Source of the DNA: Candidatus Thalassarchaeaceae archaeon
GTDB taxonomy: Archaea > Thermoplasmatota > Poseidoniia > Poseidoniales > Thalassarchaeaceae
Assembly: GCA_030747675.1 (NCBI GenBank)
Contig: JASLKH010000013.1
Span: 1-17,783 of the forward strand
Reading direction: 5' to 3'
DNA: 17,783 nt
Position numbers and translations under genes: made by a program
In this document: piece after piece, positions 3,062 to 17,563 of the stretch
How positions within the stretch are numbered: the stretch's first letter is position 1
Layout: every line of letters begins with the position of its first letter
Notes under the pieces: generated by a model
What the model was told of the DNA's origin: nothing
The model's database searches: none
Seen by the model: the letters and a program-made list of their open reading frames with translations, nothing else

Positions 3062-5695
3062 TCAATTCACCTCAACACCCTCGCCAAGAACACGACGGGT
3101 TTCATCTGGGTCGATGAATAAAACTGCGAGAATGATTAATGATTCAAAGACCGCTGCTAAAAGTAATAGTGTTGCATAATCAAATCGACTTGCGAATAAA
3201 TCAGTCAATGAATACCCGATGACTGCAGATAGATTCATCATAGCCATGTACGCAGTGAATTGAGTGCCACCAACTTCACTCCATGTAATTTTCATCATCA
3301 TTGAAAATATGTTGATTGAGACAATTCCCCATACAAATGCTCGGATAGACCAGATTGTCACGAGGTATGTTGCATTATTCCACCATGCTTCGGTCAATCC
3401 CCAGATGACCGTCATCATGGTTCCAATCAAAGCCGCGTAGATGATGATTGATTTCCCACCAAATTGTTTTCCTAATTGGCCACCTACAATGTACCCAATC
3501 ATTGTGATGATCAATATTAATCCTCCCTTCGTAGCATTGAATTTCTCTGGAGACCAATCTAATTCTTTAAGGAAAAGAAGGGGTAAAACTGGTACTATGA
3601 AGTATGAGAGTGAGAGTGCCAAACTTAGCACAATTCCAAGGCGGGTTGAACGTAATGAAAATGCAGTAAGTACATTCGAAATAATCTCCTTGAAATCACG
3701 TTTTTCTTCTACATTGGAATTAAATTCAATTTCACAATCTTTCTGCCATGGAAACCGCTTTTCTCCAGGACGTTCAGTCATGAATAAAGGCACCATCATA
3801 ATTAGAAGAAGTATTGGAATTTGAAGTAAAACCGCACCTTTTATGCCCACAGATCCAATAATCGAGCCTAGTCCAGCACCACCAATCATTGCCCCGATAA
3901 TTTTGGAACTGAACATGTAACTGTTGACTTTTTCAAATTCATGCACTTTGAGAACATCGACTGCCAATGCATCAGTACTGACATCTTGCAGTGATGTGAA
4001 TATGTTGTATATGAGGAATATCAGGGCAATAGTATTGAAGTTCCCAGATGGGTTTGGAACAAATAAAATCAAGGATAGTGTTAGAATCATCCCAATTTCT
4101 GCAATTAGAATCCAAGGGCGTCGCCGACCCATTTTCCTATATTGGAATCGATCAATCACTGGCCCCCAGAGGAATTTGAAGGTCCAAGGTAACGTACCCA
4201 ATAGGAGTAATGTAGCAATAGAGCCTGCACCTAAACCTTCAGCTGCAAGGTACGTGACAAAAGTGACTGTAATGAATCCCCAAGGGAGTCCTTGTGCCAC
4301 GTATAGTGCACAGAGAGTGAGCACTCTTGCCCGATAACTTTCTGTTAGAGTATTGGATTTACCTCCCTCCTCATTAGTGTGGTCCTCTCCCTCAACCTCT
4401 TCTGCATCTATAATAAAACCCATTTGGAAATCATCACGGCGTAATGAGATGAATCCTACCAAGCAGAACATTGCTATTATCCATGGGATGAATATACCAA
4501 TTGCTAAACTTCCACCTCCAACTGCGAAGCTACCCTCTCCCTCATTTTCAGTACTCTCACTCCCATTTGTGTTCCAATCCCACCAAGCCATGGTGGCAAT
4601 GATATCTAGACCAGTTTGGAGGCCAGATTCAACATTGAGCCTTCCTCCTGCGAGGGAATTGATTGTAGTGACAGAATCGGTTTGAGCATGCTTTGGTGTT
4701 TGTTCACAAGTATCTCCTTCTTCCAAAATATACTGGTGCTGACCACGTAGCCAAGTTGCTGTATGGCCACCCATTATGAAATTGAAATGATCAGAATTCC
4801 CTTTCGTATCGTCAATAACTTTGACCCATTCTTCTGGATGGCTTAAATTGGTATTAATTTCTTTCAAGTATGCTTGAAACCATTCGGCCCGGTGTTGCAT
4901 TTCTTCTGTAACATCAAGCCCTTCATTCTCATAGTATGACCAATCGTCAACAGGCGATGTAAATTCGTATAGTGTCCAATAGTCCTCATCACAACCAGTG
5001 GCTTGACTTGCTAATGGTGTAGGTACTGGCCAGTTGAGTGCAAACATGTCAAGATTGACGTATGTGACATTCGTTCCATTTGGAATATGATTTTCTACAA
5101 AATGTAAACTACCTTTCCCTCCCCCTTCAGAAGAAGAAGATCCTTGCCATTCTTCGTAGTCCCACCATGCTAACTTCCAGGTGTGTAAAGGTGTACCATT
5201 CCAATTTGAGATTGTTTCAGCAAGTTCCAGTAATGAACCACTCCCTGTCCCATCATCGTAGGCACCCGAACTAGAACATCCAGCATATGTCTGCCCAATT
5301 AATGGTGGCGGAGAATAGCATATGGCATCATGATGTGAACCGAGGACATACCACGAGTCATCTAATGTCCCATTTATTGTTACGACAATATTTTCACAAT
5401 TATCACATTCGGATGTAGAAAATGGTTGCCTCTCAACATCATACCCCATCGCTTCAAGTTCCTCTGCAATCCAATTTCGTGCATTTACATTTGCTTGAGT
5501 ATCTATTTTTCGATAACCAAATTGTGTCATTGAGACCATATTGTCGTAAGCGGAACTTCCTTCTGGCCAGTCAGGAGGACTTTCTTGCATCACTTCAATT
5601 TCAGCACCAGCGGGTGATAATGGAGTTAGAGCTAGCATGAGCAGGGTGAGAATCACCAACACTCCGCCTCTGCCCATAGGCAGAGGCAAATCCAT
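3062..5695 (-). CDS. Fusion protein: signal peptide + M28-family metallopeptidase + TM linker + AmpG-like MFS transporter
   Basis: One uninterrupted ORF. N-terminal signal peptide (GRGGVLVILTLLMLALTPLSPAGA). M28 metal-ligand motifs GSHHD, GAYDDGTG, DYEE, NLDM, SDHFNF and a late His (KHAQTD). One TM helix at about 4444-4508, then an acidic linker. From about 4335 there are AmpG/MFS motifs LYVAQGLPWGF, LPWTFKFLWGPVIDRF, GRRRPWI, QDVSTDALAVD and GTQFTAYMAMMNL. Start is ATG 5695 or 5677. Confidence 0.9.
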   Translation of the reverse strand: MDLPLPMGRGGVLVILTLLMLALTPLSPAGAEIEVMQESPPDWPEGSSAYDNMVSMTQFGYRKIDTQANVNARNWIAEELEAMGYDVERQPFSTSECDNCENIVVTINGTLDDSWYVLGSHHDAICYSPPPLIGQTYAGCSSSGAYDDGTGSGSLLELAETISNWNGTPLHTWKLAWWDYEEWQGSSSSEGGGKGSLHFVENHIPNGTNVTYVNLDMFALNWPVPTPLASQATGCDEDYWTLYEFTSPVDDWSYYENEGLDVTEEMQHRAEWFQAYLKEINTNLSHPEEWVKVIDDTKGNSDHFNFIMGGHTATWLRGQHQYILEEGDTCEQTPKHAQTDSVTTINSLAGGRLNVESGLQTGLDIIATMAWWDWNTNGSESTENEGEGSFAVGGGSLAIGIFIPWIIAMFCLVGFISLRRDDFQMGFIIDAEEVEGEDHTNEEGGKSNTLTESYRARVLTLCALYVAQGLPWGFITVTFVTYLAAEGLGAGSIATLLLLGTLPWTFKFLWGPVIDRFQYRKMGRRRPWILIAEIGMILTLSLILFVPNPSGNFNTIALIFLIYNIFTSLQDVSTDALAVDVLKVHEFEKVNSYMFSSKIIGAMIGGAGLGSIIGSVGIKGAVLLQIPILLLIMMVPLFMTERPGEKRFPWQKDCEIEFNSNVEEKRDFKEIISNVLTAFSLRSTRLGIVLSLALSLSYFIVPVLPLLFLKELDWSPEKFNATKGGLILIITMIGYIVGGQLGKQFGGKSIIIYAALIGTMMTVIWGLTEAWWNNATYLVTIWSIRAFVWGIVSINIFSMMMKITWSEVGGTQFTAYMAMMNLSAVIGYSLTDLFASRFDYATLLLLAAVFESLIILAVLFIDPDETRRVLGEGVEVN

Positions 5696-5748
5696 CTTTG
5701 TCAAGAGGCTTCGCCTTGGCAGAAATGATTAGGTTTGTACCAAACCGG

Positions 5749-6591
5749 ATGTCAATGGCGAATTGGGACGTACCCGAATTTAGGACAAAGCCAGCCCTTT
5801 CTGGTGCTGAACTTCGTGATGAAATGGAGCAACCAATTAATGCCTCAATAGCAGCATGGTGGCTGACTCAAGCCTCTTGGATGATACGTTTTAGGGACGG
5901 TCCACTAATCCTTATTGATCCATGGTGGCGGGACCTGTATGCTGGTGATATGTGGGGTAAATTACTTGGTGAATTCCCACTTGAACCCGAAGAACATCCT
6001 GAACCCGATTTGATATTGTGCACACATTGGCATGATGACCACATATGTCCCGTAAGCATTCCTCGGCTTGCTAAAGCATTCCCTAATGTAAAATTCGTAG
6101 TCCCAAATCGTTCAGTCGATTTACTGTTAAATTGGGAAATCCCGTTGTCAAGAATAGTTACAATGAAAGGGTCTGATTCAGTAGATATAGGAGACATTAA
6201 AGTGCATGCAATTCCTGCAGCACACGAGGATTTGGACATCACTGAAGATGGTGCTTGGTACCTTGGTTATACAATTTCATTTGGGTCTAAAACAGTGCTT
6301 CACATGGGTGACAGTCGCCCGTATCCTGGATGGCATGAATCTTTCAAAAAAGCTTCACCAAATGGTTTCGATTTAGTATTTGCATGCATCAATGGTAATG
6401 ACAACCTCCGGCATGATGAAGCGGTAGATCTAGCACTTGCATTGAACCCTACCCTCATTGTACCCATGCACTATGGTATGGACCCTGGTAATACCGTTGA
6501 CCCTCAAATATTCGTGGATGACATTGAACTGAGAGCCCCCAATCAATCCTATCGTGTACCAACAGTTGGAGAAATATTCTCAATCAATTAA
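5749..6591 (+). CDS. Metallo-beta-lactamase-fold hydrolase, UlaG (L-ascorbate-6-P lactonase)-like
   Basis: WWL...LIDPW, THWHDDH (HxHxDH), AAH, LHMGDS and IVPMHY. The pattern 'LLLNWEIPLSRIVTM' resembles UlaG-like proteins. Start is uncertain (5725, 5749 or 5755); divergent from the M28-MFS gene. Confidence 0.85.
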   Translation: MSMANWDVPEFRTKPALSGAELRDEMEQPINASIAAWWLTQASWMIRFRDGPLILIDPWWRDLYAGDMWGKLLGEFPLEPEEHPEPDLILCTHWHDDHICPVSIPRLAKAFPNVKFVVPNRSVDLLLNWEIPLSRIVTMKGSDSVDIGDIKVHAIPAAHEDLDITEDGAWYLGYTISFGSKTVLHMGDSRPYPGWHESFKKASPNGFDLVFACINGNDNLRHDEAVDLALALNPTLIVPMHYGMDPGNTVDPQIFVDDIELRAPNQSYRVPTVGEIFSIN

Positions 6592-6626
6592 GAAGTTCTG
6601 TAAATAATAATCCATTAATTTGAGTC

Positions 6627-6666
6627 TGTGTTGTTAATATCATTAATACACAAAAAGGAGTTAAAT
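6627..6666 (+). promoter_or_regulatory. Candidate archaeal promoter (purine-rich BRE-like tract + TTAAAT box) with an upstream imperfect palindrome
   Basis: AT-rich 100-bp intergenic region. TGTGT-TG-TTAAT-ATC-ATTAA-T-ACACA at 6627-6652, an AAAAGGAG tract, then TTAAAT at 6661-6666, about 26-30 nt upstream of ATG 6692, which fits a leaderless transcript. Confidence 0.4.
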
Positions 6667-6691
6667 TCTCAAATGATTCGTGGTAAATGAA

Positions 6692-7753
6692 ATGACCCAG
6701 AAGTCTCCTCGGAGTATCATGCGGAGAGGGGCTGAGGCTATTTTCTGCTCGATTCCAGCCAGAATCGGCATTCTTGGCAACCCTTCAGATGATTATAATG
6801 GGCAATGCATCTCAACTCCATGTAAAAATTGGAGAGCTATGTGTGTATTAACTCCTCACGAAAACCGATGGGATTCCACACTTTCTCTCGATTTTTCCGA
6901 TTCAGAGCCAGCATTAGAATTCAAATCGGTGGAGAATTTAGCTTCTATGCCCCCTAATTTGAACGAAGGAGGGATTAGCCGTTTGGTGCTAGGAACAATC
7001 ATCCATTTTCAAGAAGAATGCGTGTCAAGTGGATTTGCCATGCCTGCTAGTGGATATACTATGAAAATAAGTACGGACATTCCTCGCCAGGTTGGGCTTG
7101 CAGGCTCATCTGCTATCGTAACTGCAGTGTTACGCTGTCTTTTGACACACCATGGTCTTGGCACTGCTTTACCTCCCCATGCAATAGCCGATATGGTTCT
7201 CAAAGTGGAAACAGAAAAACTAGGAATTGTTGGAGGATTACAAGATCGTTTACCTCAAGCTTACAATCAGATGTTGCACATGGATTTCAGGGAAGAACTG
7301 ATGGAGGGACGTGGTTGGGGTGCATATGCTGAATTAGACTCTTCTTTGCTTCCCCCTCTTTGGTTAGCACATGCTGAAATGGGTGAGGATTCAGGGAGGG
7401 TTCATGCTGATCTTCCCGAAAGGTGGGCGACTCAAGATCCTGTAATGGTACGTTCTATGAAGGAATTAGCTTGGTGTGCACATCGGGGTAGGGAAGCATT
7501 GGTTTCTAATGATATGGATGGATTAAGCAATGAGATTAATCGTAATTTTGACATTCGTATAGAGTTATTTGGTGAAGACAGTTTAGGTAATAATTTAGCT
7601 ATGGTCAAACTAGCAAGGAACCTAGGATCTTGCGCAAAACAACCGGGTTCAGGAGGGGCTATTTTCGGTGTCATTCCTGACGAGGGATTCATGGAGCGTG
7701 CCCGAAGTGCGTTCGATGAGCACGGTTGGAAACTCGTGCGCTTGGAGATCTAA
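6692..7753 (+). CDS. GHMP kinase, plant-type glucuronokinase-like (EC 2.7.1.43-like)
   Basis: ARIGILGNPSD, IPRQVGLAGSSAIV, LGIVGGLQDR, HMDF, LLPPL, DSGRVH, NFDIR..FG...LG and GSGGA. These are collinear with motifs recalled from Arabidopsis glucuronokinase (ARIGFLGNPSD, IPRQTGLSGSSAIV, LGIVAGLQDR, HMDF, LLPPL, DSGKVH, NFDIRRRMFGDECLG). Confidence 0.85.
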   Translation: MTQKSPRSIMRRGAEAIFCSIPARIGILGNPSDDYNGQCISTPCKNWRAMCVLTPHENRWDSTLSLDFSDSEPALEFKSVENLASMPPNLNEGGISRLVLGTIIHFQEECVSSGFAMPASGYTMKISTDIPRQVGLAGSSAIVTAVLRCLLTHHGLGTALPPHAIADMVLKVETEKLGIVGGLQDRLPQAYNQMLHMDFREELMEGRGWGAYAELDSSLLPPLWLAHAEMGEDSGRVHADLPERWATQDPVMVRSMKELAWCAHRGREALVSNDMDGLSNEINRNFDIRIELFGEDSLGNNLAMVKLARNLGSCAKQPGSGGAIFGVIPDEGFMERARSAFDEHGWKLVRLEI

Positions 7754-7755
7754 GA

Positions 7756-9216
7756 ATGGCTGATGATGGGCGGTTGCGAATTGCCTATGTCCACGACTCC
7801 CCATTACATGGGATATTGCCAACATCATATCGTGATCCCAAGAAATTGTTTGAATTGGGATTTACAGATGTTGTTGTTGCAGATCAAATGAGCGGTTGTC
7901 TTGGAGCAGCTTTAGAAGGCGCTCCTGAGAACTCATTTTCGGAATTAAATGCAAAAGTTCAGCAGGCTAAAGATGCAGGCTTAGCGGTTTGGTTGATGGA
8001 TGACATCTTCACTTTACCACGCAATTGTGATGCTGGTTGTCCAGGAAGAGATGACACTTGGGAAATTACCGCTCAAGCGATTCGTGATACCCTTGAGGAA
8101 ATACCGGAGGTGCGAGGTTTAGTGATGCGTTTCGGTGAAACATTTGATAGCCCGGACGACTGGGTGAAACGAGTTGACATGTTACAATGTGACTGCATTG
8201 GTTGTGCATCTTTGGATGGAATTGAACGCCGTCGGAAAGTGGTTGAAATGTTGGAAAATGTAGTTTGTCGTGAAATGGGTAAACGCTGTATCCTCAGGCT
8301 CTGGGATATTGGTGAATCTGGCATACATGCTGATCGTTTTTTACAGGGTAAAGTACTTTCAAAATGGTCTGGAGACCCCCGTTTCATGGTTTCAGTGAAA
8401 CATACAATCACTGATTATTGGCGCCACCAATCTTGGAATCCAAGTATTGCTGATCCAGGACCTCCCCGTTTGGTTGAGTTTCAATGTGAAAGGGAATATG
8501 AGTTTATTGGAATGGTTCCAAATTGGCAAGGTCCTGAATGGAGTCAAGGTGCAAATGAGTGTGGAGAATTTGGCACTAGAGGTTTGTCAAATGTGCGGCC
8601 AGAAGATTGGGCTGGGATGTGGATTATTCCTCTAGGGGGTGGCTGGTCATCTCGGCATGCAACTAGTGAATTGTGGGCTGATATGAATGTCCATACCGCC
8701 CTATCTCTTTGTTCAAATCCCGAGCGAAATCCTGACGAGATTCTCGCAGAATGGATGCAAATTAGAGGATTACCTGATGAGGCTCGTTCGTTATTTGTAA
8801 AAAGTCCAGATTTAATATTGCGATTGAGATATTTGGATGTATGGCGATTAATAAAAAATCAAAGGTGGATGCCAGCAGAAAATTGGTTTAGAGACGATAA
8901 TTTTGTCCCAGGTGCATGTGCAAAAATTGCAAATGAAGTTAGTAAACAAAAAATGAGAGATTTGTTACGGTCGGAGCGTTTACTTGCAACCGCCATGGCT
9001 AGAACTCATCTTCAGGAAGCAGAAGCATTACCACTCTGCGAATACAGCGACTTTATTGTTTCATCTTACAGATGGGCTCTTCAATTTGCAGAATGGACTG
9101 AAATCACTTGGAATCATCTTCTTGATGCAGTCCCATTAACCCGTGATGCCGCGAAACAAATTCTGCTTAGAAGGATGGAATTGGACCCCCTCCCTCCTCT
9201 TAGCGTAATGGATTGA
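7756..9216 (+). CDS. Putative glycoside hydrolase, divergent GH67 (alpha-glucuronidase)-like catalytic barrel
   Basis: Several segments are collinear with the GH67 catalytic domain as recalled: IPEVRGLVMRFGE vs IPDFGGFLVKANSE; CILRLW vs VMWRAF; VSVKHTITDY vs VQIKNGPIDF; VEFQCEREY vs MELQITQEY; NVHTALSLCSNP...EILAEW vs NWYAFGRLAWDP...IADEW. No signal peptide. ATG 7756 lies 2 nt after the kinase stop. CDS is certain, product is tentative. Confidence 0.6.
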   Translation: MADDGRLRIAYVHDSPLHGILPTSYRDPKKLFELGFTDVVVADQMSGCLGAALEGAPENSFSELNAKVQQAKDAGLAVWLMDDIFTLPRNCDAGCPGRDDTWEITAQAIRDTLEEIPEVRGLVMRFGETFDSPDDWVKRVDMLQCDCIGCASLDGIERRRKVVEMLENVVCREMGKRCILRLWDIGESGIHADRFLQGKVLSKWSGDPRFMVSVKHTITDYWRHQSWNPSIADPGPPRLVEFQCEREYEFIGMVPNWQGPEWSQGANECGEFGTRGLSNVRPEDWAGMWIIPLGGGWSSRHATSELWADMNVHTALSLCSNPERNPDEILAEWMQIRGLPDEARSLFVKSPDLILRLRYLDVWRLIKNQRWMPAENWFRDDNFVPGACAKIANEVSKQKMRDLLRSERLLATAMARTHLQEAEALPLCEYSDFIVSSYRWALQFAEWTEITWNHLLDAVPLTRDAAKQILLRRMELDPLPPLSVMD

Positions 9217-9245: not shown

Positions 9246-10124
9246 ATGGAGGCTGCCTTGTTTGCACGTTTGTGGGAGGAAATTGATTTTGATGATCATC
9301 CTCTGAACGGTGGCCATGATTCATCTCCTGAAGGTGAATTAGTTGTATCAGAAGGTGAAGGCTGGATTCGTTTAGAGGATTCAAGATTAAGCGTATCATT
9401 GGGTTGTAAAACAGATGCGACCTCATCACATATGTGGGCCTCGAATAGTGTGAAAGTTAACCAAGGCCCAGGCCGTCTTGGAGTGCATCGTTGGTCATTT
9501 TCACCAAATGAATTGAATCATGAATTATATCATTGGTTGGCAGGGAAGATAGGTGAACCCGGAGTAATAGAGGGGGACTCTGTTGACGTTGAGCGTATTT
9601 TACTCGGTGAATTACGTGTTATTCTTGAACCAATTCTTAGTGATTGGACTTGGCATCTAGAAATAGACAACAAACCTGACAGAATGGGTTGGTATATTCG
9701 GGCACCTAGTAAATGGTGTAGCCTTTTCACAATATTTGTTGGCCTTGATATGAATTCAAAAAATAGCCAAAAGGGATTTTTATTGTTTGAGAGAGCGCCA
9801 CCAGGGGAATTGGATCGACCAGATGAAAAGGAGGCCAACCAATTGGATGGTCTACGTACTGTTGCTTTATGCAATGCATCGAGAGGTGCCCTTTCATTGC
9901 TGGCAGGAGATATGCATTGGGCCTCAACTCCTCGCGCATATCCCTTACCAGATTTGCCTGGTTCAGTTCATCTATGGCCACCTTCAATGGGCCGCTGGCC
10001 GCTTCTACATGCCAAATCTGATGAAGGGGCGAATATTTGTGAATGGGCTTACGAATTAGTTCAAGCATTACTGCCTTCAATTTCAACATTGAATACTAAA
10101 ATCAAAGGACTTAGTTGGCATTGA
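9246..10124 (+). CDS. Hypothetical protein (Trp-rich, soluble)
   Basis: About 292-aa ORF with no recognised motif. An alternative TTG start at 9213 overlaps the upstream stop (TTGA). The 3' end overlaps the convergent kinase gene by 14 nt. Confidence 0.75.
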   Translation: MEAALFARLWEEIDFDDHPLNGGHDSSPEGELVVSEGEGWIRLEDSRLSVSLGCKTDATSSHMWASNSVKVNQGPGRLGVHRWSFSPNELNHELYHWLAGKIGEPGVIEGDSVDVERILLGELRVILEPILSDWTWHLEIDNKPDRMGWYIRAPSKWCSLFTIFVGLDMNSKNSQKGFLLFERAPPGELDRPDEKEANQLDGLRTVALCNASRGALSLLAGDMHWASTPRAYPLPDLPGSVHLWPPSMGRWPLLHAKSDEGANICEWAYELVQALLPSISTLNTKIKGLSWH

Positions 10125-10974
10125 CGACTAATCCTTCGTCATCGAAATCCCATTCGATAATTTCCCAATTCGCATTCTCGCATGCTTCCTTCACAATATC
10201 CTGCCGGCCATGACCTGCTAAGAGGGCAACACACCCACCTCCACCTGCTCCCAACGCTTTCCAACCTGCAACGTCTCCACTAGCACACAAAGGGTCTACA
10301 ATTGAGCGGAAAGGTGCGTGAAGAGCAGGGTCTAGTGCATCAACTCCATTGCATACATCTTGCAAGGCTTCAATGACAAAATTTCTACGGTCCTGATCTA
10401 ATCCTTTAGCCATTTTTCTAGCAGCCAATCGAATGGTCATTAATCCATCAATAACTTCTTGCTCACCATCAGCATATCTTTTCCAAATCCTATCGTGTAA
10501 TTCACCACTCACATGGGGGATTCCACTATTTGCGACAACGAGATGTTTTTGCAACCAAAAACGGGCACTCCGTGGTGGTTCAAATGGAAGCGGTTCAACA
10601 TTGTCGCCAATAAACATCAGATGGTTGAATCCACCATTTTTTGCGGCCCATTGATCCTGACGTCCCCCCGTATTTCCAAGCAGTGCTTCAAATTGATATG
10701 CAAGTTCTTCCGCATTTTCCTGACCCTTGATAGCAGCCATTAATGCGACATTGATTGCACCTGTTGTTCCTAATCCAGATCCTACAGGGGCATCACACGA
10801 ATAGGTGACATTCAATTTTTCATTGCCATCAATTGTCAGTTTTGCCCTAGCGTAGATGTTGATGGCACAATTCACCACTTCACCTCCCACGTCATGTGTG
10901 TACGGTGGAACGTCAGTCCAACCTCCTGCGAGGTCCAATCGAACAGGCGCCCTTGCCTCAATTTCCCTTGCCAT
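10111..10974 (-). CDS. Compact GHMP sugar kinase, L-fucokinase/HddA-like
   Basis: RAPVRLDLAGGWTDVPPY...GGEVVNCAI (GGWTD is fucokinase/Fkp-like), PVGSGLGTTGA ATP loop, GGRQDQ, VHxSG-like HVSGELH and WKALGAGGGG. SD-like GAGGGGT lies just upstream of ATG 10974. Confidence 0.85.
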   Translation of the reverse strand: MAREIEARAPVRLDLAGGWTDVPPYTHDVGGEVVNCAINIYARAKLTIDGNEKLNVTYSCDAPVGSGLGTTGAINVALMAAIKGQENAEELAYQFEALLGNTGGRQDQWAAKNGGFNHLMFIGDNVEPLPFEPPRSARFWLQKHLVVANSGIPHVSGELHDRIWKRYADGEQEVIDGLMTIRLAARKMAKGLDQDRRNFVIEALQDVCNGVDALDPALHAPFRSIVDPLCASGDVAGWKALGAGGGGCVALLAGHGRQDIVKEACENANWEIIEWDFDDEGLVVNAN

Positions 10975-10998
10975 GTTTCGACCCCTCGACAATTAGGT

Positions 10999-13900
10999 TT
11001 AGTTGAATCGCCAAGTTGCTATTGCTTTAGGATTCAATTTTGCAGGCCACCCCGATTTAGAAATACGCGGTTTGGTGGTTGCATTTTCTAACAAATCACA
11101 TCCACGAACATTGAACAGTGGTAGATCAGTCTCTATTCGACCTTCCCACACTTCGCTAGTTGGGTTGTATAGTCTGACGATAGTACCATTACCATCAGCA
11201 GCTGGCTTGACACAGGCGATGATAGGCATTGGACCAGTCCCTACCAATCGAACCGGTTGTAAGCGCTTTCCACCTTTTCCTGGGGTACAGATTTCATCAA
11301 ATTCTCCATCTAATTGCGGTTTTGGAAGAGCATTTTGTACATTGGCATCACAAGCAAATGATTCTGCAACTTGGTGTATTTCAGATTCGACCCAAGTGTC
11401 ATCATAAGCCATTATTGCCCACCGAGTCCACTGGGATCCCTTGCATTGTGCCCCTGGTGCTTCAAACACGGGTCCTGCTCGATTTCTTCTACTAGCAAAC
11501 CCATCCAAACTGAGATGACCAGTAGCGCGGAGCAAAGTGATTGCTAGTGTGGTTCCAGACTCACCAGTCATTGCTTCATATTCATTTGATCCTGGACAGA
11601 ATATGGCGACACCTCCATCCTTTTCTTCTGCGATTAATACATCTGAAAAGTGGTGTGTTGGTACATGTGGTTGCTGCCAATCTGCGTGGTGTGGCCAATT
11701 TGCTGGCCGCTCAAGAATATCAAATGCCCCTCCTGCAAAGACAGTTTTCGTATCGCATCCAGTTGGGATATGCATTCTTAGGCGATGATCTTCACTCGAA
11801 TTATTCACCCATGTTTCAACTTCAATCATACTGTGTCCACTTCGCATTGTAATGTAATGGTCAATTGTATTCCATTCCATTTCTTCACTACGCTTTTGAG
11901 TTCCTCTATCAAAGCGAGCTGGTAATGCCCATGCAACATGTAGTCTCACCGTAGCAGTCCAATCATCCTGATTTTCTATTGTCAAATACACTTGTCGGTT
12001 CGCCTCATCAACATCTGCAATTCTGCAATCAGTAGCCTCAACTCGTTCAGCCATTTTTTCTCCTTTACCTGCTGCTTGAGGTACAGGATGTCCGGCTGCA
12101 GACCAATCATAACTATCGCCAGCATCTTCTGAATCTTCTAAACGACCCGCTCCAATGATGTGCCGACCAGTTGAATGATCTAGTATGTCAAAGCGACCAT
12201 CGGCCCTGAACAAAACGCGAACTCGTCCATTATCCATCCAATCAGTTCGTCCAAACTCTCCACCAAGCCTTACGGGCTCTCCGGGTAAATTGTGTGACCC
12301 TCTGCCAGGTAGAGCATGGGCAACTGAAAGCCCAGGTGGGAGCCGGTGGACATGAATACGTCCCACAATACGGGGAAGTTCAACATTAGCCACACGGTCG
12401 TAATGCACATGTAAATCCCATGATTTTGGTTGGATTGACAACCCTTCCGTGTGGATTAAACAATCTCCTGCTGCAGCAGCCATGACAATTTTTACAGGGA
12501 GACCGTGATCTAACCAACAACGGAATTTTGGAACTGCGATATCAATCATGAGAGTCCCCGACCATGCTTTCGCCAATGGATTGTGGAAGAGCAGCGGGAC
12601 TGCATCACGATCTTCGTTGGATAAATCCATTTGTTCCCTCAATTCAAGGCGCACATCATCTTCTAACATAACGGCAACTTGCTGAGCATGTTTGAACCGA
12701 ACTTCCATGTCATCATGTGTTTCATCAACACTGCAACCACAAATGTCATCATGAGGGTGATTACGAAGAACTTCTCTCCATGCTAAATCCAATCTATCAC
12801 CACGGAACCTTCCACCATTTGCGCAAGAAATTGATGATAATTGTTCGACTCGATCTTTCAGCAATCTCATTGTGTGATCATTTGCACGTTTGAGATATAG
12901 GCGAGCACTGAATACTCCTGATAGAACATTCATTGACCACCCTGAGTGCAATTCACCTTGGTACTTGAATACCTTTGATTTCCCTAACCATTCCCGTAGG
13001 GCTTCAATATATGCCGGGAATGACGAATGTTGGAATTTTATTTTTCCATTAAATCGTTGACTTGCTTTACCAATTAACATTGGCAAAGTTGGCTGGGGAT
13101 GCGTGTGGTCACTCCCTTGACCGAATAGTAGAACTTCAGGCTTCCATCCAATTTCTTCGTGGCGATTTAGCAATCGTTCCATTCTACCCATGGCAGTTTC
13201 GACATCGACATCAAGCGAGTCTTTTCGATCCAATGGCCTTTCTTCAAAGCCCCAAGCCATTAAGCAAGGATAATCTGGAACTTGTTGAACTGCGAGAACT
13301 TTGGTCTTCCCATCACTGGCATACCAGTTGAATACGCCCCCTGCTTCTTGTATCCAAGGTCCTGCTCCACGAGTGTAAATGAATGAATCAAGTCCAGAAC
13401 CCTTGAGGATTGCAGGTAGTTGTGCTACATGACCAAACGGATCTGGAACATAACCCACTTCTGATCGACCACCCCATCTTTCAGCAGTACGATGACCCAT
13501 TAGCAAGTTACGAACTAGCGCTTCTCCTCCGACAATATATTCGTCAGGAAGTACATACCATGGGCCAATATTCAATCGCCCTTTTTTGATTAATTTTTGA
13601 ATCCGTCCAGCATTTTCTGGTCTTACTTCTAGATAATCCTCGAGTAAAACAGTTTGTCCATCTAATTCGTAGGAGGGGTATGCTTTGGCATTATTTTCCA
13701 TGATGTCAAGTAAATCATCAATGAATTCAATCAAGCGATATCTGTATTTTTGGAATGGAAGGTACCAAGCCCTATCCCAGTGTGTATGAGGAACTATGTG
13801 CCCAATCAAGGGCGCATCTTTGAGACGCCCAGTTTTAGCAACTGAGAGTTTTGGATATCGAGATCCATCAGCGACTTCTTTTGGCAGTGGTTCTATTTCA

Positions 13901-14598
13901 GGTAAGTCTTCGATTTCTTCTTCAATTACTTCCCATTTCTCGTCAGTATCTGATTTCACTACTTCTTCAATGATATTTTCACTACTTTCTGTAACTTTGG
14001 AAGTCTCTTCGTTTGCTTCTTGTGCAGCTAATTCTTCTGCATCTACAATATTTTCTTCCTGTCCGGTGATTTTGGCCACTGCATCGTCGAAGAGGGTACT
14101 TTCATCATCCCTTCTAGGGATATCAGTGACCAGTTCTTCTTGGACTGGGTTGGGCGGGCCTCTGACAGGTGGACCCTTTCTTGTCGGAGGCCCTCTGGAA
14201 GGTGGCCCCTTTCTTACTGGGGGCCCTTTAGCAGGTGCTTCAGTAGAAGTTTCAGTAGGTCTTTCAGAAGTGTCTTCTGAAGGTGGTTCTGGTATTTCTT
14301 CATCATCCTCTTCTTCATCTAATATTTCCTCAGTAGTAGAATTTAGGTCAGATGAAAGTCTACTCGGTGGCCCAGAGGGTGGTCTCCCAGATGGCCCAGA
14401 TGGCGGTCCACTCGGTGGCCCAGATGGTGGTCCCCCTGATGGCCCAGATGGCGGGCCACTCGGCGGTCCAGAAGGTGGCCTTTTAGTGGGGGGTCCTCGA
14501 CTAGGAGGCCCACGGCTAGGAGGTCCGCGCTTCGACGGCGCAGTCTCTTTTTCAGAGACATCATCTTCCTCTTCATTCGGTGGTCCAGCGGGTGGCAT
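10999..14598 (-). CDS. GH38 alpha-mannosidase (MngB/mannosylglycerate-hydrolase-like) with ~260-aa Pro-rich, charged disordered N-terminal extension
   Basis: HIVPHTHWDRAWY (Zn ligands), LDGQTVLLEDYL, IGPWYVLPDE, GYVPDPFGH (nucleophile), GSDH and HPHDDICGCSVDETH, followed by GH38 C-terminal beta domains. No signal peptide. Confidence 0.92.
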   Translation of the reverse strand: MPPAGPPNEEEDDVSEKETAPSKRGPPSRGPPSRGPPTKRPPSGPPSGPPSGPSGGPPSGPPSGPPSGPSGRPPSGPPSRLSSDLNSTTEEILDEEEDDEEIPEPPSEDTSERPTETSTEAPAKGPPVRKGPPSRGPPTRKGPPVRGPPNPVQEELVTDIPRRDDESTLFDDAVAKITGQEENIVDAEELAAQEANEETSKVTESSENIIEEVVKSDTDEKWEVIEEEIEDLPEIEPLPKEVADGSRYPKLSVAKTGRLKDAPLIGHIVPHTHWDRAWYLPFQKYRYRLIEFIDDLLDIMENNAKAYPSYELDGQTVLLEDYLEVRPENAGRIQKLIKKGRLNIGPWYVLPDEYIVGGEALVRNLLMGHRTAERWGGRSEVGYVPDPFGHVAQLPAILKGSGLDSFIYTRGAGPWIQEAGGVFNWYASDGKTKVLAVQQVPDYPCLMAWGFEERPLDRKDSLDVDVETAMGRMERLLNRHEEIGWKPEVLLFGQGSDHTHPQPTLPMLIGKASQRFNGKIKFQHSSFPAYIEALREWLGKSKVFKYQGELHSGWSMNVLSGVFSARLYLKRANDHTMRLLKDRVEQLSSISCANGGRFRGDRLDLAWREVLRNHPHDDICGCSVDETHDDMEVRFKHAQQVAVMLEDDVRLELREQMDLSNEDRDAVPLLFHNPLAKAWSGTLMIDIAVPKFRCWLDHGLPVKIVMAAAAGDCLIHTEGLSIQPKSWDLHVHYDRVANVELPRIVGRIHVHRLPPGLSVAHALPGRGSHNLPGEPVRLGGEFGRTDWMDNGRVRVLFRADGRFDILDHSTGRHIIGAGRLEDSEDAGDSYDWSAAGHPVPQAAGKGEKMAERVEATDCRIADVDEANRQVYLTIENQDDWTATVRLHVAWALPARFDRGTQKRSEEMEWNTIDHYITMRSGHSMIEVETWVNNSSEDHRLRMHIPTGCDTKTVFAGGAFDILERPANWPHHADWQQPHVPTHHFSDVLIAEEKDGGVAIFCPGSNEYEAMTGESGTTLAITLLRATGHLSLDGFASRRNRAGPVFEAPGAQCKGSQWTRWAIMAYDDTWVESEIHQVAESFACDANVQNALPKPQLDGEFDEICTPGKGGKRLQPVRLVGTGPMPIIACVKPAADGNGTIVRLYNPTSEVWEGRIETDLPLFNVRGCDLLENATTKPRISKSGWPAKLNPKAIATWRFN
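14149..14229 (-). repeat. Coding repeat cluster (K/R)GPP: KGPPVRKGPPSRGPPTRKGPPVRGPP
   Basis: Five GPP units in the translation of the GH38 N-terminal extension; boundaries approximate. Confidence 0.8.
14359..14529 (-). repeat. Coding tandem repeat: RGPPS x3 followed by a 48-nt (16-aa) unit PPSGPPSGPPSGPSG(G/R) x2.5
   Basis: Units at 14478-14431, 14430-14383 and a partial unit at 14382-14359. They differ mostly at synonymous positions, and the AGT Ser codon is always at codon 7 of the unit. Confidence 0.9.
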
Positions 14599-14651: not shown

Positions 14652-16778
14652 TTATTGCGACCTCCTAAGGAGGTCGTCGAGAACTTGATTGGCCAGATTT
14701 AATTCATCTTCAATTTCATTTTCAAAATTGATTTTCGCTCCAGGATATCGTAACGCTGCTGCTACTCCAATCATGATGTTCGAGAATTCTAAATTATGTT
14801 CCATACAAAGTAAAACAGGTCCCATTAATCTGTCATGCATTCCAAGTTTTCGCATAGGGTCGCGGGCATTTCTCTCAATGGGATCTTGTATTGATTGGTC
14901 TTGATATTTGAGGAGGGCATTGCGACACCATTCTCTTTGCTCAGTCTCATCAAAATCAAATGCACTAACTAGTGCTGCCGATGATTCTGCACCAGCAGCA
15001 AGCGCAACCTTTGCAATATCGGAATCATTAGCAGCATCTGCAAGCCAGATATAACCACGAAGATATCCAAGGTAACAAACAACTGCATTAACACAATTGT
15101 AAGTGAATAACTTTCTTGTCAACTCACGTTCAAAGTTTGGAACTGGAACTAATCCCTTAACCTGTGGATTTGTCAATAGTGCGTCTCCGTCTAGTGGCAA
15201 TGTCCAATGGTCTTGAATTTGCACAGTCATCTTGGCTTGGCCGGAGGACGGTTCAATGCAAGAACGCAAGACTTGTGCTTGTACAATTCCAAGATTTTCA
15301 TTAATTAATTCAATTTGCCTTTCATCAGAATTTGAGATTAGATAATTACGAACTGCGGCTGCAGGTCTTGGATGATTTTCCGCCAATATGAGGTCAATTT
15401 TGCCCCTTTGAAGTCTTTTAAAGAGAATTTCTTTTATTTCTTCACACCATGGTAATAATTGGTTCGCGCCCATCGAAGTCATCAACAAATCCGCTGAATT
15501 AAGTGTGTCCATCAAAGACTTTTTTTCGCTCATATGGATGACATTTTTGACTACTATTGTTTCATTTTTTTTCGTAGATAAATTGTGCACATCCCACATC
15601 TTTGTTTCGCGTAAAGATTCAACTGTTGGAATATGTGAATCAACTAGGATGATTTCCCAACCTGAATGAGTTAGCAATTGACTGAGAAAACCTCTGCCAA
15701 CTTTTCCTGCCCCAAAAATCACTGCACACAGTTTTCTTTGAGCAAGTTTTGCGACACCAAGTACACTTACTTCTTGTCCTGCAACAAAGGATGCATTTCT
15801 AGACTGCACTAATTGTGGAATCATTGCTAAACCACCTCCTATCAGCATTTCTTGTGATGGGAAAAAATTGCGTATTTCTTCAATTGGACGATTAATTTCT
15901 TGCAATATTTTCCAAGCCCCCCCTTTCTTGCCATTTGCAGATTCTAATTTCAATTGTTCAATGAACTTTAGAGCAGAATCCCGGCTTGGTTTTTCACCTG
16001 AAATCTGAGACAGAGTCAACCCACCTGAGGATGTCGCGTTGTAACAAAGTGCAGGTAGGCAACCCAAAGGGGGCAACCAACTCATTTGGTCTTGGGGTTT
16101 CCCTCCAACCATGCCAACGTGTTCACTTGTATTTGCGAGATTGAATAAATCCCCCACTTTCGCATCTAAACCCAATACACCCGCAGTCAGGTCATCACAT
16201 CCACAGATGACTTCAGCACCTTCAGTAATTCCAGACAATACCGCTCCATTTTTGGTGACCACCCCGATTACACTCTGCGGTAGTTGGAAATGTCCTTTTC
16301 CAGAAAACCCTCTCATTGAACGTTTGTCTCTTGCAATAATTCCTGTAAGTTCCCAATTGTACAAATCTTTGAGCTGAATTGCAATCCCGTCTTTGAGTGG
16401 TCCATTCTCCATTTCCCATTGTGCTAGCCTCGCAGGTACCCAAGCACGGGTATCTGGCAATTGTTGTTCACCTTCCGTTGGTCGTTGGCATTCTTCAGGT
16501 AGTGGTTCATGCCATGATATGATTCTTCCACAAAGTCTCCTGTCTTTGATAACAACAGCTGAAGGTCCATGGGTTGTGATCCCAACTCTTGTGATTTTTT
16601 GCTTCTTGTTCCCCAACCAATCTCTTAGAGGATTCCATAACCCTTCAGAAGTAGGCCAAACGCCCATTTCCCATGTTGAATCTGATTTGAGAAGGAGTAC
16701 TTTCGTTGCGCTTGTACCGACATCGAGACCCAGTGTCAGTCGCTCAGGCATGGAGTCTCCGAGACACAGCCGGTTCAT
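14652..16778 (-). CDS. Fusion: compact FGGY-family carbohydrate kinase + mannitol-1-phosphate 5-dehydrogenase (MtlD)-family domain
   Basis: N-terminal half: LGLDVGTSATK, LTG...D, GCDDLTAGVLG, NTSE, IGGG and EVSVLGVAKLA (FGGY). C-terminal half from about 15730: AVIFGAGKVGRGF, TSMGAN, LAEN, RKLFTYN and IERNARDPMRKLGMHDRLMGP (MtlD). ATG 16778 overlaps the upstream stop (ATGA); ATG 16751 with an upstream GGAG is an alternative. Confidence 0.88.
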   Translation of the reverse strand: MNRLCLGDSMPERLTLGLDVGTSATKVLLLKSDSTWEMGVWPTSEGLWNPLRDWLGNKKQKITRVGITTHGPSAVVIKDRRLCGRIISWHEPLPEECQRPTEGEQQLPDTRAWVPARLAQWEMENGPLKDGIAIQLKDLYNWELTGIIARDKRSMRGFSGKGHFQLPQSVIGVVTKNGAVLSGITEGAEVICGCDDLTAGVLGLDAKVGDLFNLANTSEHVGMVGGKPQDQMSWLPPLGCLPALCYNATSSGGLTLSQISGEKPSRDSALKFIEQLKLESANGKKGGAWKILQEINRPIEEIRNFFPSQEMLIGGGLAMIPQLVQSRNASFVAGQEVSVLGVAKLAQRKLCAVIFGAGKVGRGFLSQLLTHSGWEIILVDSHIPTVESLRETKMWDVHNLSTKKNETIVVKNVIHMSEKKSLMDTLNSADLLMTSMGANQLLPWCEEIKEILFKRLQRGKIDLILAENHPRPAAAVRNYLISNSDERQIELINENLGIVQAQVLRSCIEPSSGQAKMTVQIQDHWTLPLDGDALLTNPQVKGLVPVPNFERELTRKLFTYNCVNAVVCYLGYLRGYIWLADAANDSDIAKVALAAGAESSAALVSAFDFDETEQREWCRNALLKYQDQSIQDPIERNARDPMRKLGMHDRLMGPVLLCMEHNLEFSNIMIGVAAALRYPGAKINFENEIEDELNLANQVLDDLLRRSQ
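14658..14676. repeat. Perfect palindrome CGACCTCCT-A-AGGAGGTCG just before the stop codon of the kinase-MtlD gene
   Basis: 9-bp arms at 14658-14666 and 14668-14676; the stop codon is at 14652-14654. Confidence 0.5.
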
Positions 16779-17563
16779 TGCAAGTTCTCTGCACTGTCTG
16801 GCCAAGAAATCGGTGACCAATCGAGAATTGATAGACCCGGTTCGAGATCTAAGAACCGATCAGGTGAATCCGATTGTGCGGCAGTAAGTAGATATCCGTC
16901 AATTGGATTTTCAACCGCAGCTTGGAAAAATCTGCGCACATCTTCGGCCAAGAATGCGGTGGCCTGCAATCGTCCACCACGTGTCCAGTGCTCCGTTTCA
17001 TCAGGGATCACAGTTCCAATCCGAACAGCGATAGTTTCCATGCCATGGATTCTAGCGTGCATTTCAGCCATCACTTCCGCATAGATCTTTGAAGCGCCGT
17101 ATGTTGATGTTGGCGACACTCCATCTTCAACACGAATCAGTCGACCATGCATCGGTCCGCCTTCGGCAAATAGAGGTTCAAGCCCCACTTGGGCCAGGCC
17201 GCTTGAGGCTACGATTACACGGCTGACATGAGATGCTTTTGTGCATCGGAAAATCGCGGTTGTCGGCTCGATATTGTTGCGCATCATCGAGACATCATCA
17301 TTTGACGGATTCGCATCTGCAGCCAAATGGATTAGGCAATCTGAACCTTCGAGAACCGCACACAACTCCTCGTCTGAAATCGTTGTCAAATCCATTTCAA
17401 TGGATACACGATTTCGCGCATTTTCATCCTCTGTGTTTCTGCCGGAAACCAACCAATCGTTCAATGGTCGATCAATTCCGATCACTTCGTGTCCAAGCGA
17501 TGACAAATGGTCGTGGACGATGCCTCCGATGAGGCCCGCAGCTCCAGTAATCACGACCCGCAT
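16775..17563 (-). CDS. Extended SDR / NAD-dependent epimerase-dehydratase family, uronate-dehydrogenase-like
   Basis: ITGAAGLIG (GxxGxxG), LIHLAA, NN, IVASS, YGASK (YxxxK) and VRIG. The layout after YxxxK (ETIAVRIGT...RLQATAF...D) resembles uronate dehydrogenases. SD-like GGAG upstream. Family is secure, substrate is tentative. Confidence 0.82.
   Translation of the reverse strand: MRVVITGAAGLIGGIVHDHLSSLGHEVIGIDRPLNDWLVSGRNTEDENARNRVSIEMDLTTISDEELCAVLEGSDCLIHLAADANPSNDDVSMMRNNIEPTTAIFRCTKASHVSRVIVASSGLAQVGLEPLFAEGGPMHGRLIRVEDGVSPTSTYGASKIYAEVMAEMHARIHGMETIAVRIGTVIPDETEHWTRGGRLQATAFLAEDVRRFFQAAVENPIDGYLLTAAQSDSPDRFLDLEPGLSILDWSPISWPDSAENLQ

Follow-up and report, generated by a model that had tools for sequence, protein, structure and literature searches.

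The window analysed here comprises positions 1 to 17,783 of contig JASLKH010000013.1 (17,783 nucleotides), from a Candidatus Thalassarchaeaceae assembly (GCA_030747675.1) of 1.68 Mb that is 78% complete. The gene under study, at positions 6719..7753 of the forward strand, encodes a GHMP sugar-1-kinase of 344 aa assigned to the glucuronokinase (GlcAK) family on the basis of its motifs, its PF00288 domain, its identity with glucuronokinases and a conserved start. It is followed, 3 bp past its end and in the same orientation, by a gene (7756..9216, +) for a cytoplasmic glycosidase of 486 aa that resembles family GH67 and, judging from fold match, paired residues and adjacency, appears to be the obligate partner of the kinase. 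The kinase gene occupies a single open frame of 357 codons (6680-7753, +). Alternative starts are present at GTG 6680 and ATG 6692, the latter giving a protein of 353 aa; yet, according to alignments of the relatives, the start shared with them is ATG 6719 and not ATG 6692. All motifs on which the initial annotation had based its proposal of a glucuronokinase homologue are present in the translation, in the order given there: ARIGILGNPSD, IPRQVGLAGSSAIV, LGIVGGLQDR, HMDF, LLPPL, DSGRVH and NFDIR. Pfam recognizes the GHMP_kinases_N domain (PF00288; E 8.5e-12, 45.6 bits vs. a cut-off of 22.3), while GHMP_kinases_C (PF08544) remains below threshold (17.2 bits vs. a cut-off of 21), as in many members of the family. 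None of the NCBIfam models comes near its own cut-off. The best one, HddA, scores 33 bits where 600 are needed, and the HddA, mevalonate kinase and galactokinase models all yield E-values of 4e-8 or worse, far under their cut-offs.

In a search of 5.8 billion proteins, the closest matches of the kinase (70-85% identity) were proteins of Marine Group II, several of them named "glucuronokinase" by the Joint Genome Institute (JGI); the nearest named relatives belong to Thalassarchaeaceae/Poseidoniales, i.e., Marine Group II archaea. Next, at E-values of about 1e-60, bacterial, Asgard and eukaryotic proteins appear side by side, including glucuronokinase 1 of Nematostella. The zebrafish "glucuronokinase with putative uridyl pyrophosphorylase" aligns over 334 residues (94% query coverage) with 38% identity (E 9e-62). 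The plant "glucuronokinase 1" (Ziziphus) matches residues 16-346 with E 7.5e-56 and is 39% identical over 310 residues. These similarities go far beyond chance. The proposed full-length homology to the GlcAK family is thereby confirmed, as is the archaeal host. An exhaustive HMMER search among 1.84 billion cluster representatives gave 308 clusters with E-values no higher than 1e-30; fusions of around 600 aa with an N-terminal extension are frequent among them. Conversely, the kinase open reading frame (ORF) is the sole strong match in this genome of plant, fish, cnidarian, algal, bacterial and Asgard members, the second-best match being more than 50 orders of magnitude weaker.

In a set of 40 members from archaea, bacteria, plants and algae, we found 23 columns without any variation, among them those of the sugar-side GNPSD, P-loop PxxGLxGSSA, QDR and GSG motifs, and all family motifs (N-terminal GNPSD, IPRxxGLxGSSA, GLQDR, HMDF, NFDxR and GSGG) are present in the kinase translation. 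Of 53 columns with at least 90% conservation among the 74 other members, the Marine Group II clade retains 43, and most of the 10 differences are conservative. The kinase shares 35-42% identity with members outside its own clade, while plant-fish, plant-bacterium and fish-bacterium pairs reach 47-55%. Thus, the initial annotation went too far in calling it a "close" homologue of the eukaryotic enzyme: its identity to that enzyme is only 38-39%, and bacterial members are nearer to the plant and fish enzymes (45-55%). Like plant glucuronokinase (Arabidopsis GlcAK1, EC 2.7.1.43, for which the Ziziphus protein served as proxy), it is a GHMP kinase that stands alone, is about 350 aa long and has its motifs in the same order, and the bacterial homologues of Spirosoma, Larkinella, Fibrisoma, Acidobacteriota and Verrucomicrobiota are likewise stand-alone (about 330-345 aa, 39-42% identity). 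On sequence grounds, the kinase is a genuine, intact, full-length and divergent archaeal member of the known GlcAK family. The enzymes of both Arabidopsis (PMC2823444) and zebrafish (PMC3938481) are reported to be strictly specific for D-glucuronate, and ATP-dependent phosphorylation of this sugar at C1 to the exclusion of galacturonate and neutral sugars is known only for these two; by analogy, the predicted and most likely activity of the archaeal protein is the phosphorylation of D-glucuronate at C1.

Such an enzyme had been considered unusual for prokaryotes, a view that our searches contradict. With one genome taken per prokaryotic species, at least 563 prokaryotic genome stretches encode a relative of the kinase. 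Among the matches listed, these cover over a dozen phyla and include Thalassarchaeaceae, Bathyarchaeota, Acidobacteriota, Armatimonadota, Poribacteria, Planctomycetota, Verrucomicrobiota, Latescibacterota, Hydrogenedentota, Gemmatimonadota and Desulfosarcina, as well as cultured Cytophagales (Spirosoma, Larkinella, Fibrisoma and Arsenicibacter). The cloning paper of 2009 already mentioned glucuronokinase homologues in "a few bacteria" (PMC2823444), and many metagenomic copies bear the name "glucuronokinase" at JGI. Within its own family, Thalassarchaeaceae, 11 of the 40 genomes sampled, from 5 of 12 genera, carry the kinase; it was found in none of 110 genomes of the three other families of the class.

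Phylogenetic trees were built with FastTree (165 rows) and, under the LG+C20 mixture model, with IQ-TREE (93 rows, outgroup-rooted); a set of 40 rows (LG+G4) was used for the approximately unbiased (AU) test. HddA-like kinases served as the outgroup, and galactokinase, galacturonokinase and arabinokinase sequences were left out. In both FastTree and IQ-TREE, the family as a whole (160 members) separates from the HddA-like kinases with 100% support, and database search and phylogeny together place the kinase with the characterized plant and animal GlcAKs and not with galactokinase, fucokinase, HddA or mevalonate kinase. In the IQ-TREE phylogeny a branch of 0.7 substitutions per site, with 93 in the Shimodaira-Hasegawa-like approximate likelihood ratio test (SH-aLRT), separates Marine Group II from plants, algae, fused eukaryotic forms, bacteria and Asgard. 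Support for the monophyly of Marine Group II is 100% in the FastTree and 40-row trees, but only 26% when the tree is outgroup-rooted under the mixture model. Judging from these trees, Marine Group II forms a clade of its own, more divergent than any other in the family and nested neither in plants nor in animals.

This placement bears directly on the suggestion of cross-domain transfer, i.e., that the gene was recently acquired from a eukaryote such as a plant or alga. Eukaryotic and archaeal kinases do align over their full length, and the grouping of Marine Group II with plants and algae is neither supported nor rejected by the AU test on 40 rows (p-AU 0.48). Nevertheless, we regard such an acquisition as highly improbable: apart from the separate position of the clade, its internal divergence (down to 45% identity), along with synteny maintained over five genera, points to long residence, the plant-fish and plant-bacterium identities (48-52%) exceed that between the archaeon and plants (39%), and the family occurs in hundreds of prokaryotic genomes of many phyla. 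What is known as the plant and fish "glucuronokinase" is, as far as can be judged from sequence relationships, really a widespread prokaryotic family, and the kinase of the window is neither rare among prokaryotes nor evidence for transfer between domains.

The less-known element of the locus is the GH67-like partner. No Pfam or NCBIfam match to this protein was obtained even at E 10, and its 58 relatives all come from Marine Group II, the only group in which the family was found. An AlphaFold (AF2) model built from 36 sequences is confident, with a predicted local distance difference test (pLDDT) score of 92, and in the PDB it comes closest to GH67 alpha-glucuronidases, namely those from Cellvibrio and Geobacillus (Foldseek E 1e-12). 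In the VIA comparison with GH67, 400-420 residues superpose with Z 21-22 and a root mean square deviation (rmsd) of 4.0 Å, covering the barrel and the C-terminal helical domain; GH84 comes next, with Z 18 or less and rmsd of 8-9 Å. GH138, whose listed entry acts on pectin rhamnogalacturonan II, is also among the structural matches. The N-terminal domain of the three-domain GH67 architecture has no counterpart in the model, the alignment starting only at GH67 residue 138/148.

To find the catalytic residues of GH67, a bona fide family member from Fibrisoma was aligned with PDB chains of both the wild type and mutants. Mutant E292A places the acid Glu within "VKA[DN]SE" and mutant E386Q identifies the Glu that opens "E[FV]Q", while K360 and D365 sit in "KNGPID" and E393 in "QEY". 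In GH67 enzymes, E292, D365 and E393 are regarded as the acid and base candidates and the lysines as binding the carboxylate. In an hhalign comparison, R125, E128, K215, D220, E241 and E247 of the GH67-like protein pair with K288, E292, K360, D365, E387 and E393 of GH67, and all six are invariant across the archaeal family. Compared with Cellvibrio GlcA67A and Geobacillus AguA, the partner shares a (beta/alpha)8 barrel and C-terminal helical domain that superpose, and its invariant residues match the catalytic-acid, both candidate-base and two lysine motifs; it differs in having 11-13% identity, no Pfam GH67 match, no GH67 N-terminal domain and no signal peptide. The protein is probably a remote GH67-like alpha-glucuronidase, for which the fold of the model argues and the profile alignment offers support rather than proof.

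We found that the kinase and GH67-like genes occur in an identical set of 12 out of 151 genomes of the class, always adjacent and co-oriented, with the GH67-like gene immediately downstream; the operon arrangement seen in the initial annotation is borne out. Bacterial homologues of the kinase are never located beside a GH67-like gene. Synteny, retained down to 45-50% identity, extends over a metallo-beta-lactamase (MBL) hydrolase gene, the kinase, the GH67-like gene, a gene for a 292-aa protein of unknown fold, a convergent second GHMP kinase gene (GHMP2) and a GH38 mannosidase gene. On more distant contigs the island (M28 peptidase, MBL hydrolase, 292-aa protein, GHMP2, GH38, MtlD and FGGY) occurs without the kinase and the GH67-like gene; therefore, the two form an accessory cassette inserted between the MBL and 292-aa genes. 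Because the kinase is always accompanied by a glucuronidase-like enzyme, it probably recycles the uronic acid freed by this neighbour. Here lies a difference from plants, in which glucuronate is formed by myo-inositol oxygenase and the product of the kinase passes to a broad UDP-sugar pyrophosphorylase (PMC2823444): the likely source of the sugar acid in the archaeon is the glycosidase encoded 3 bp downstream.

An adjacent gene for the next step of salvage is not found in every lineage. Between the MBL gene and the kinase, 16 of 20 Marine Group II loci encode a divergently transcribed nucleotidyltransferase of 235-250 aa (e.g., L026:5238-5945, -), and these ORFs match NTP_transf_3 and NTP_transferase. 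In the window, the corresponding site is a short intergenic gap (6592..6718, 100-127 bp), and DNA alignment shows that about 700 bp present at this site in a same-genus relative are missing from both the window and genus g2. Outside Marine Group II, 35 of 71 loci from several phyla have one PF00483 nucleotidyltransferase subfamily beside the kinase (immediately adjacent in 33 cases), its members showing 53% identity or more to a query. Examples include L053:6988-7914, L088:6993-7850 and L098:4860-5735, with 32 more among loci L035-L105. The nucleotidyltransferase of the Marine Group II relatives is, in contrast, of a small MobA-like type only weakly similar to this subfamily. The bacterial pair corresponds, in unfused form, to the fusion of kinase and pyrophosphorylase known from animals and fungi, and it has apparently never been assayed in the literature that we searched. 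In zebrafish DrGKUP (PMC3938481), glucuronokinase is fused to a putative UDP-glucuronate pyrophosphorylase; the kinase studied here is unfused and the window lacks a nucleotidyltransferase, although the same logic of a kinase with a PF00483-type nucleotidyltransferase recurs, in the form of neighbouring genes, in Marine Group II relatives and many bacteria.

Bacterial homologues without the PF00483 neighbour include those in housekeeping contexts, such as the Latescibacteria type with PhoH, YbeY and PrmC neighbours, which offer no functional clue. In a metagenome-assembled genome of Hydrogenedentota (L079:7005-8936), there is an overlap between the kinase homologue and the beginning of a heparinase II/III-like gene, which is another case of the kinase beside an enzyme for uronic-acid-containing polymers. 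A paper on bacterial UDP-xylose salvage (PMC11267548) was considered as a precedent and set aside, as it concerns a galactokinase and not the glucuronokinase family.

No orthologue of the bacterial kinase-linked PF00483 subfamily was found in this genome, which does encode two generic PF00483 proteins (on contigs C87 and C6) and three or four proteins of the UDP-glucose/GDP-mannose dehydrogenase family. The two PF00483 proteins were rejected as orthologues of the bacterial enzyme, since at 24-30% identity they are generic relatives. Glucuronate catabolism through UxaC and UxuAB had been named, beside uronate dehydrogenase, as the usual prokaryotic alternative; UxaC and UxuA were not found in the 78%-complete genome. 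Searches of the genome for UDPGP (the plant-type UDP-sugar pyrophosphorylase) and MIOX gave no match, but neither did those of the control genomes, so that these two negatives carry no weight.

Taken together, we hold it reasonably probable that the gene encodes a cytoplasmic GlcAK-family kinase, most likely an ATP:D-glucuronate 1-phosphotransferase, acting in a two-gene salvage cassette with a GH67-like alpha-glucuronidase. Uronic-acid-bearing oligosaccharides or glycopeptides would first be imported, the GH67-like enzyme would then free (methyl)glucuronic acid in the cytoplasm, and the kinase would turn glucuronic acid into glucuronate-1-phosphate, from which a nucleotidyltransferase would make NDP-glucuronate for reuse in glycan synthesis. 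Since the dedicated nucleotidyltransferase appears to have been lost here, this last step would need one of the two generic PF00483 enzymes. Family membership, conserved residues and linkage speak for the first three steps, and the gene neighbourhood in relatives and bacteria for the fourth; the substrate, the order of the steps and the fourth step in this genome are what we infer. Of the eukaryote-like salvage route postulated by the initial annotation, the kinase-plus-nucleotidyltransferase scheme is plausible in view of relatives and bacteria, while a dedicated gene for its second step is missing here.

Several observations weigh against the proposed glucuronate salvage. The 12 genomes with the gene pair represent 5 genera, not 12 independent events. 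The hhalign alignment of the GH67-like protein with GH67 is colinear over 281 columns, but has a probability of 4% (E 0.0098), and the profile of the GH67-like family retrieves no GH67 chain from the PDB sequences, leaving the two families without a link at the sequence level. We found no assayed prokaryotic member of the glucuronokinase family in the searched literature. Moreover, both characterized enzymes fall in a clade that excludes Marine Group II (SH-aLRT 93), and therefore their specificity is not transferable by phylogenetic bracketing. An adjacent nucleotidyltransferase is missing not only in the window, but also in an 85%-identical relative (L117), in genus g2 and in two further loci, and no orthologue of the relatives' enzyme was found elsewhere in this genome (78% complete) or in G002 (98% complete). 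Therefore, no second salvage step, and hence no fate of glucuronate-1-phosphate, can be assigned here.

The divergence of the clade raises the question of a shifted specificity, with galacturonate, mannuronate, iduronate, 4-O-methyl-glucuronate or a neutral sugar from the island as the substrate of a GlcAK-family kinase. It would agree with the position of Marine Group II as the most divergent lineage of the family, with its branch of 0.7 substitutions per site and 35-42% identity to the others, with the variation within this clade of D64, G82 and G184, which are well conserved in the rest of the family, and with the partner being a relative of GH67 only at the fold level that also matches the pectin-related GH138. 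On the other hand, all catalytic and motif residues are kept along with 43 of the 53 conserved columns, the best structural match of the partner is by a clear margin an alpha-glucuronidase with matching catalytic residues, and both assayed members, from plant and fish, are strictly glucuronate-specific (PMC2823444, PMC3938481). We thus consider a different substrate possible, if rather doubtful.

The missing nucleotidyltransferase, in turn, could mean that the cassette no longer feeds nucleotide-sugar salvage and that the uronate ends up trapped as a dead-end sugar phosphate or enters an undescribed route, all the more so as the kinase and GH67-like genes remain intact and conserved in the very lineages that lack the enzyme. 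To our knowledge, glucuronate-1-phosphate is used in known pathways only through a nucleotide sugar, which argues against this reading, and so does the 78% completeness of the genome. Furthermore, the genome retains its two generic PF00483 nucleotidyltransferases, and an archaeal sugar nucleotidyltransferase with broad substrate tolerance is mentioned in the introduction of the zebrafish paper (PMC3938481). This loss of function in salvage seems quite unlikely to us, and glucuronate salvage by the kinase and its partner remains the reading that we prefer.

The cassette is set in a conserved Marine Group II island together with an M28 peptidase-MFS transporter, a GH38 mannosidase and a second sugar kinase. 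Its conserved upstream flank is the gene of the MBL-fold hydrolase (5698..6591, +), recognized by Pfam Lactamase_B_3/B_2 and UlaG/TM1162-like, with weak PDB matches to the UlaG lactonase and TM_1162; it is syntenic in relatives and in islands lacking the kinase. Upstream of it, an M28 peptidase fused to an AmpG-like MFS transporter (880 aa) is encoded at 3062-5704 (-). More distant islands encode the M28 peptidase on its own, with a length of 424-463 aa (L118:4463-5854, L119:3674-4948), and the fusion is therefore lineage-specific.

Downstream of the cassette lies the gene for the conserved 292-aa protein of unknown fold (9246..10124, +), which has no Pfam match and 111 relatives. It accompanies GHMP2, GH38 and the M28 peptidase in contigs without the kinase and GH67-like genes, and it belongs therefore to the mannosidase island and not to the kinase cassette. 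Its alignment contains 35 invariant columns, including W-x-W-x-L-E, D-R-x-x-W-Y and F-E-R-x-P. Although the AlphaFold model has a pLDDT of 91, no convincing PDB match was obtained (best Foldseek E 0.2; best VIA-wide Z 7.8). The protein was also considered as the missing pyrophosphorylase and rejected, as no convincing match was returned by Atlas, Foldseek or VIA-wide, where Z 7.8 falls within the background.

The second GHMP kinase gene (10111..10992, -) is convergent and syntenic, and its product is HddA/fucokinase-like, matching heptose-phosphate kinases and fucokinase in both NCBIfam and the PDB. The core of the island is the gene for an MngB-like GH38 alpha-mannosidase of 1199 aa (10999..14598, -), which is syntenic as well and carries the Pfam GH38 N, middle and C domains; it matches NF007331 with E 1e-110, under the cut-off. 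In relatives, a DUF2817 (PF10994) gene for about 366 aa separates GHMP2 from GH38 (L117:6473-7573, L119:7855-8961). It is missing in the window, where the two genes are 6 bp apart (10992-10999), resembling the loss of the nucleotidyltransferase. Further on, a protein of 722 aa is encoded at 14652-16820 (-), with a weakly FGGY-like N-terminal half and a mannitol-1-phosphate-dehydrogenase-like half; in L118:10958-13074, MtlD (414 aa) and FGGY (481 aa) are encoded by separate overlapping genes, which suggests a gene fusion in the lineage of the window. Finally, an extended SDR of 262 aa is encoded at 16775-17563 (-). Uronate dehydrogenases (3RFT, 3AY3 and 6MFH; E about 1e-7) are the only proteins with which it aligns from end to end, epimerases matching no more than its N-terminal two thirds. 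These matches may be taken as a faint hint that the same island provides for the oxidation of uronic acids.

Marine Group II ranks among the most abundant archaea of the plankton. We know of no representative in culture, and their carbon use has been inferred from genes alone. For the kinase alone the result is modest, namely a divergent archaeal member of a known family. The locus leads to the testable prediction that glycans carrying uronic acids are taken up by some Thalassarchaeaceae, which would recycle the acid via a sugar-1-phosphate rather than the classical isomerase pathway. A more far-reaching proposal, which as a whole seems unlikely, is that the kinase and its GH67-like partner, joined in most lineages by a small nucleotidyltransferase, form a mobile accessory Marine Group II cassette that converts bound uronic acid directly to an activated nucleotide sugar with the aid of a new glycoside hydrolase family, and that opens into an undescribed route for glucuronate-1-phosphate where the nucleotidyltransferase has been lost. 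If true, the cassette would define a prokaryotic route from bound uronic acid to nucleotide sugar, fed by a new family of glycoside hydrolases.

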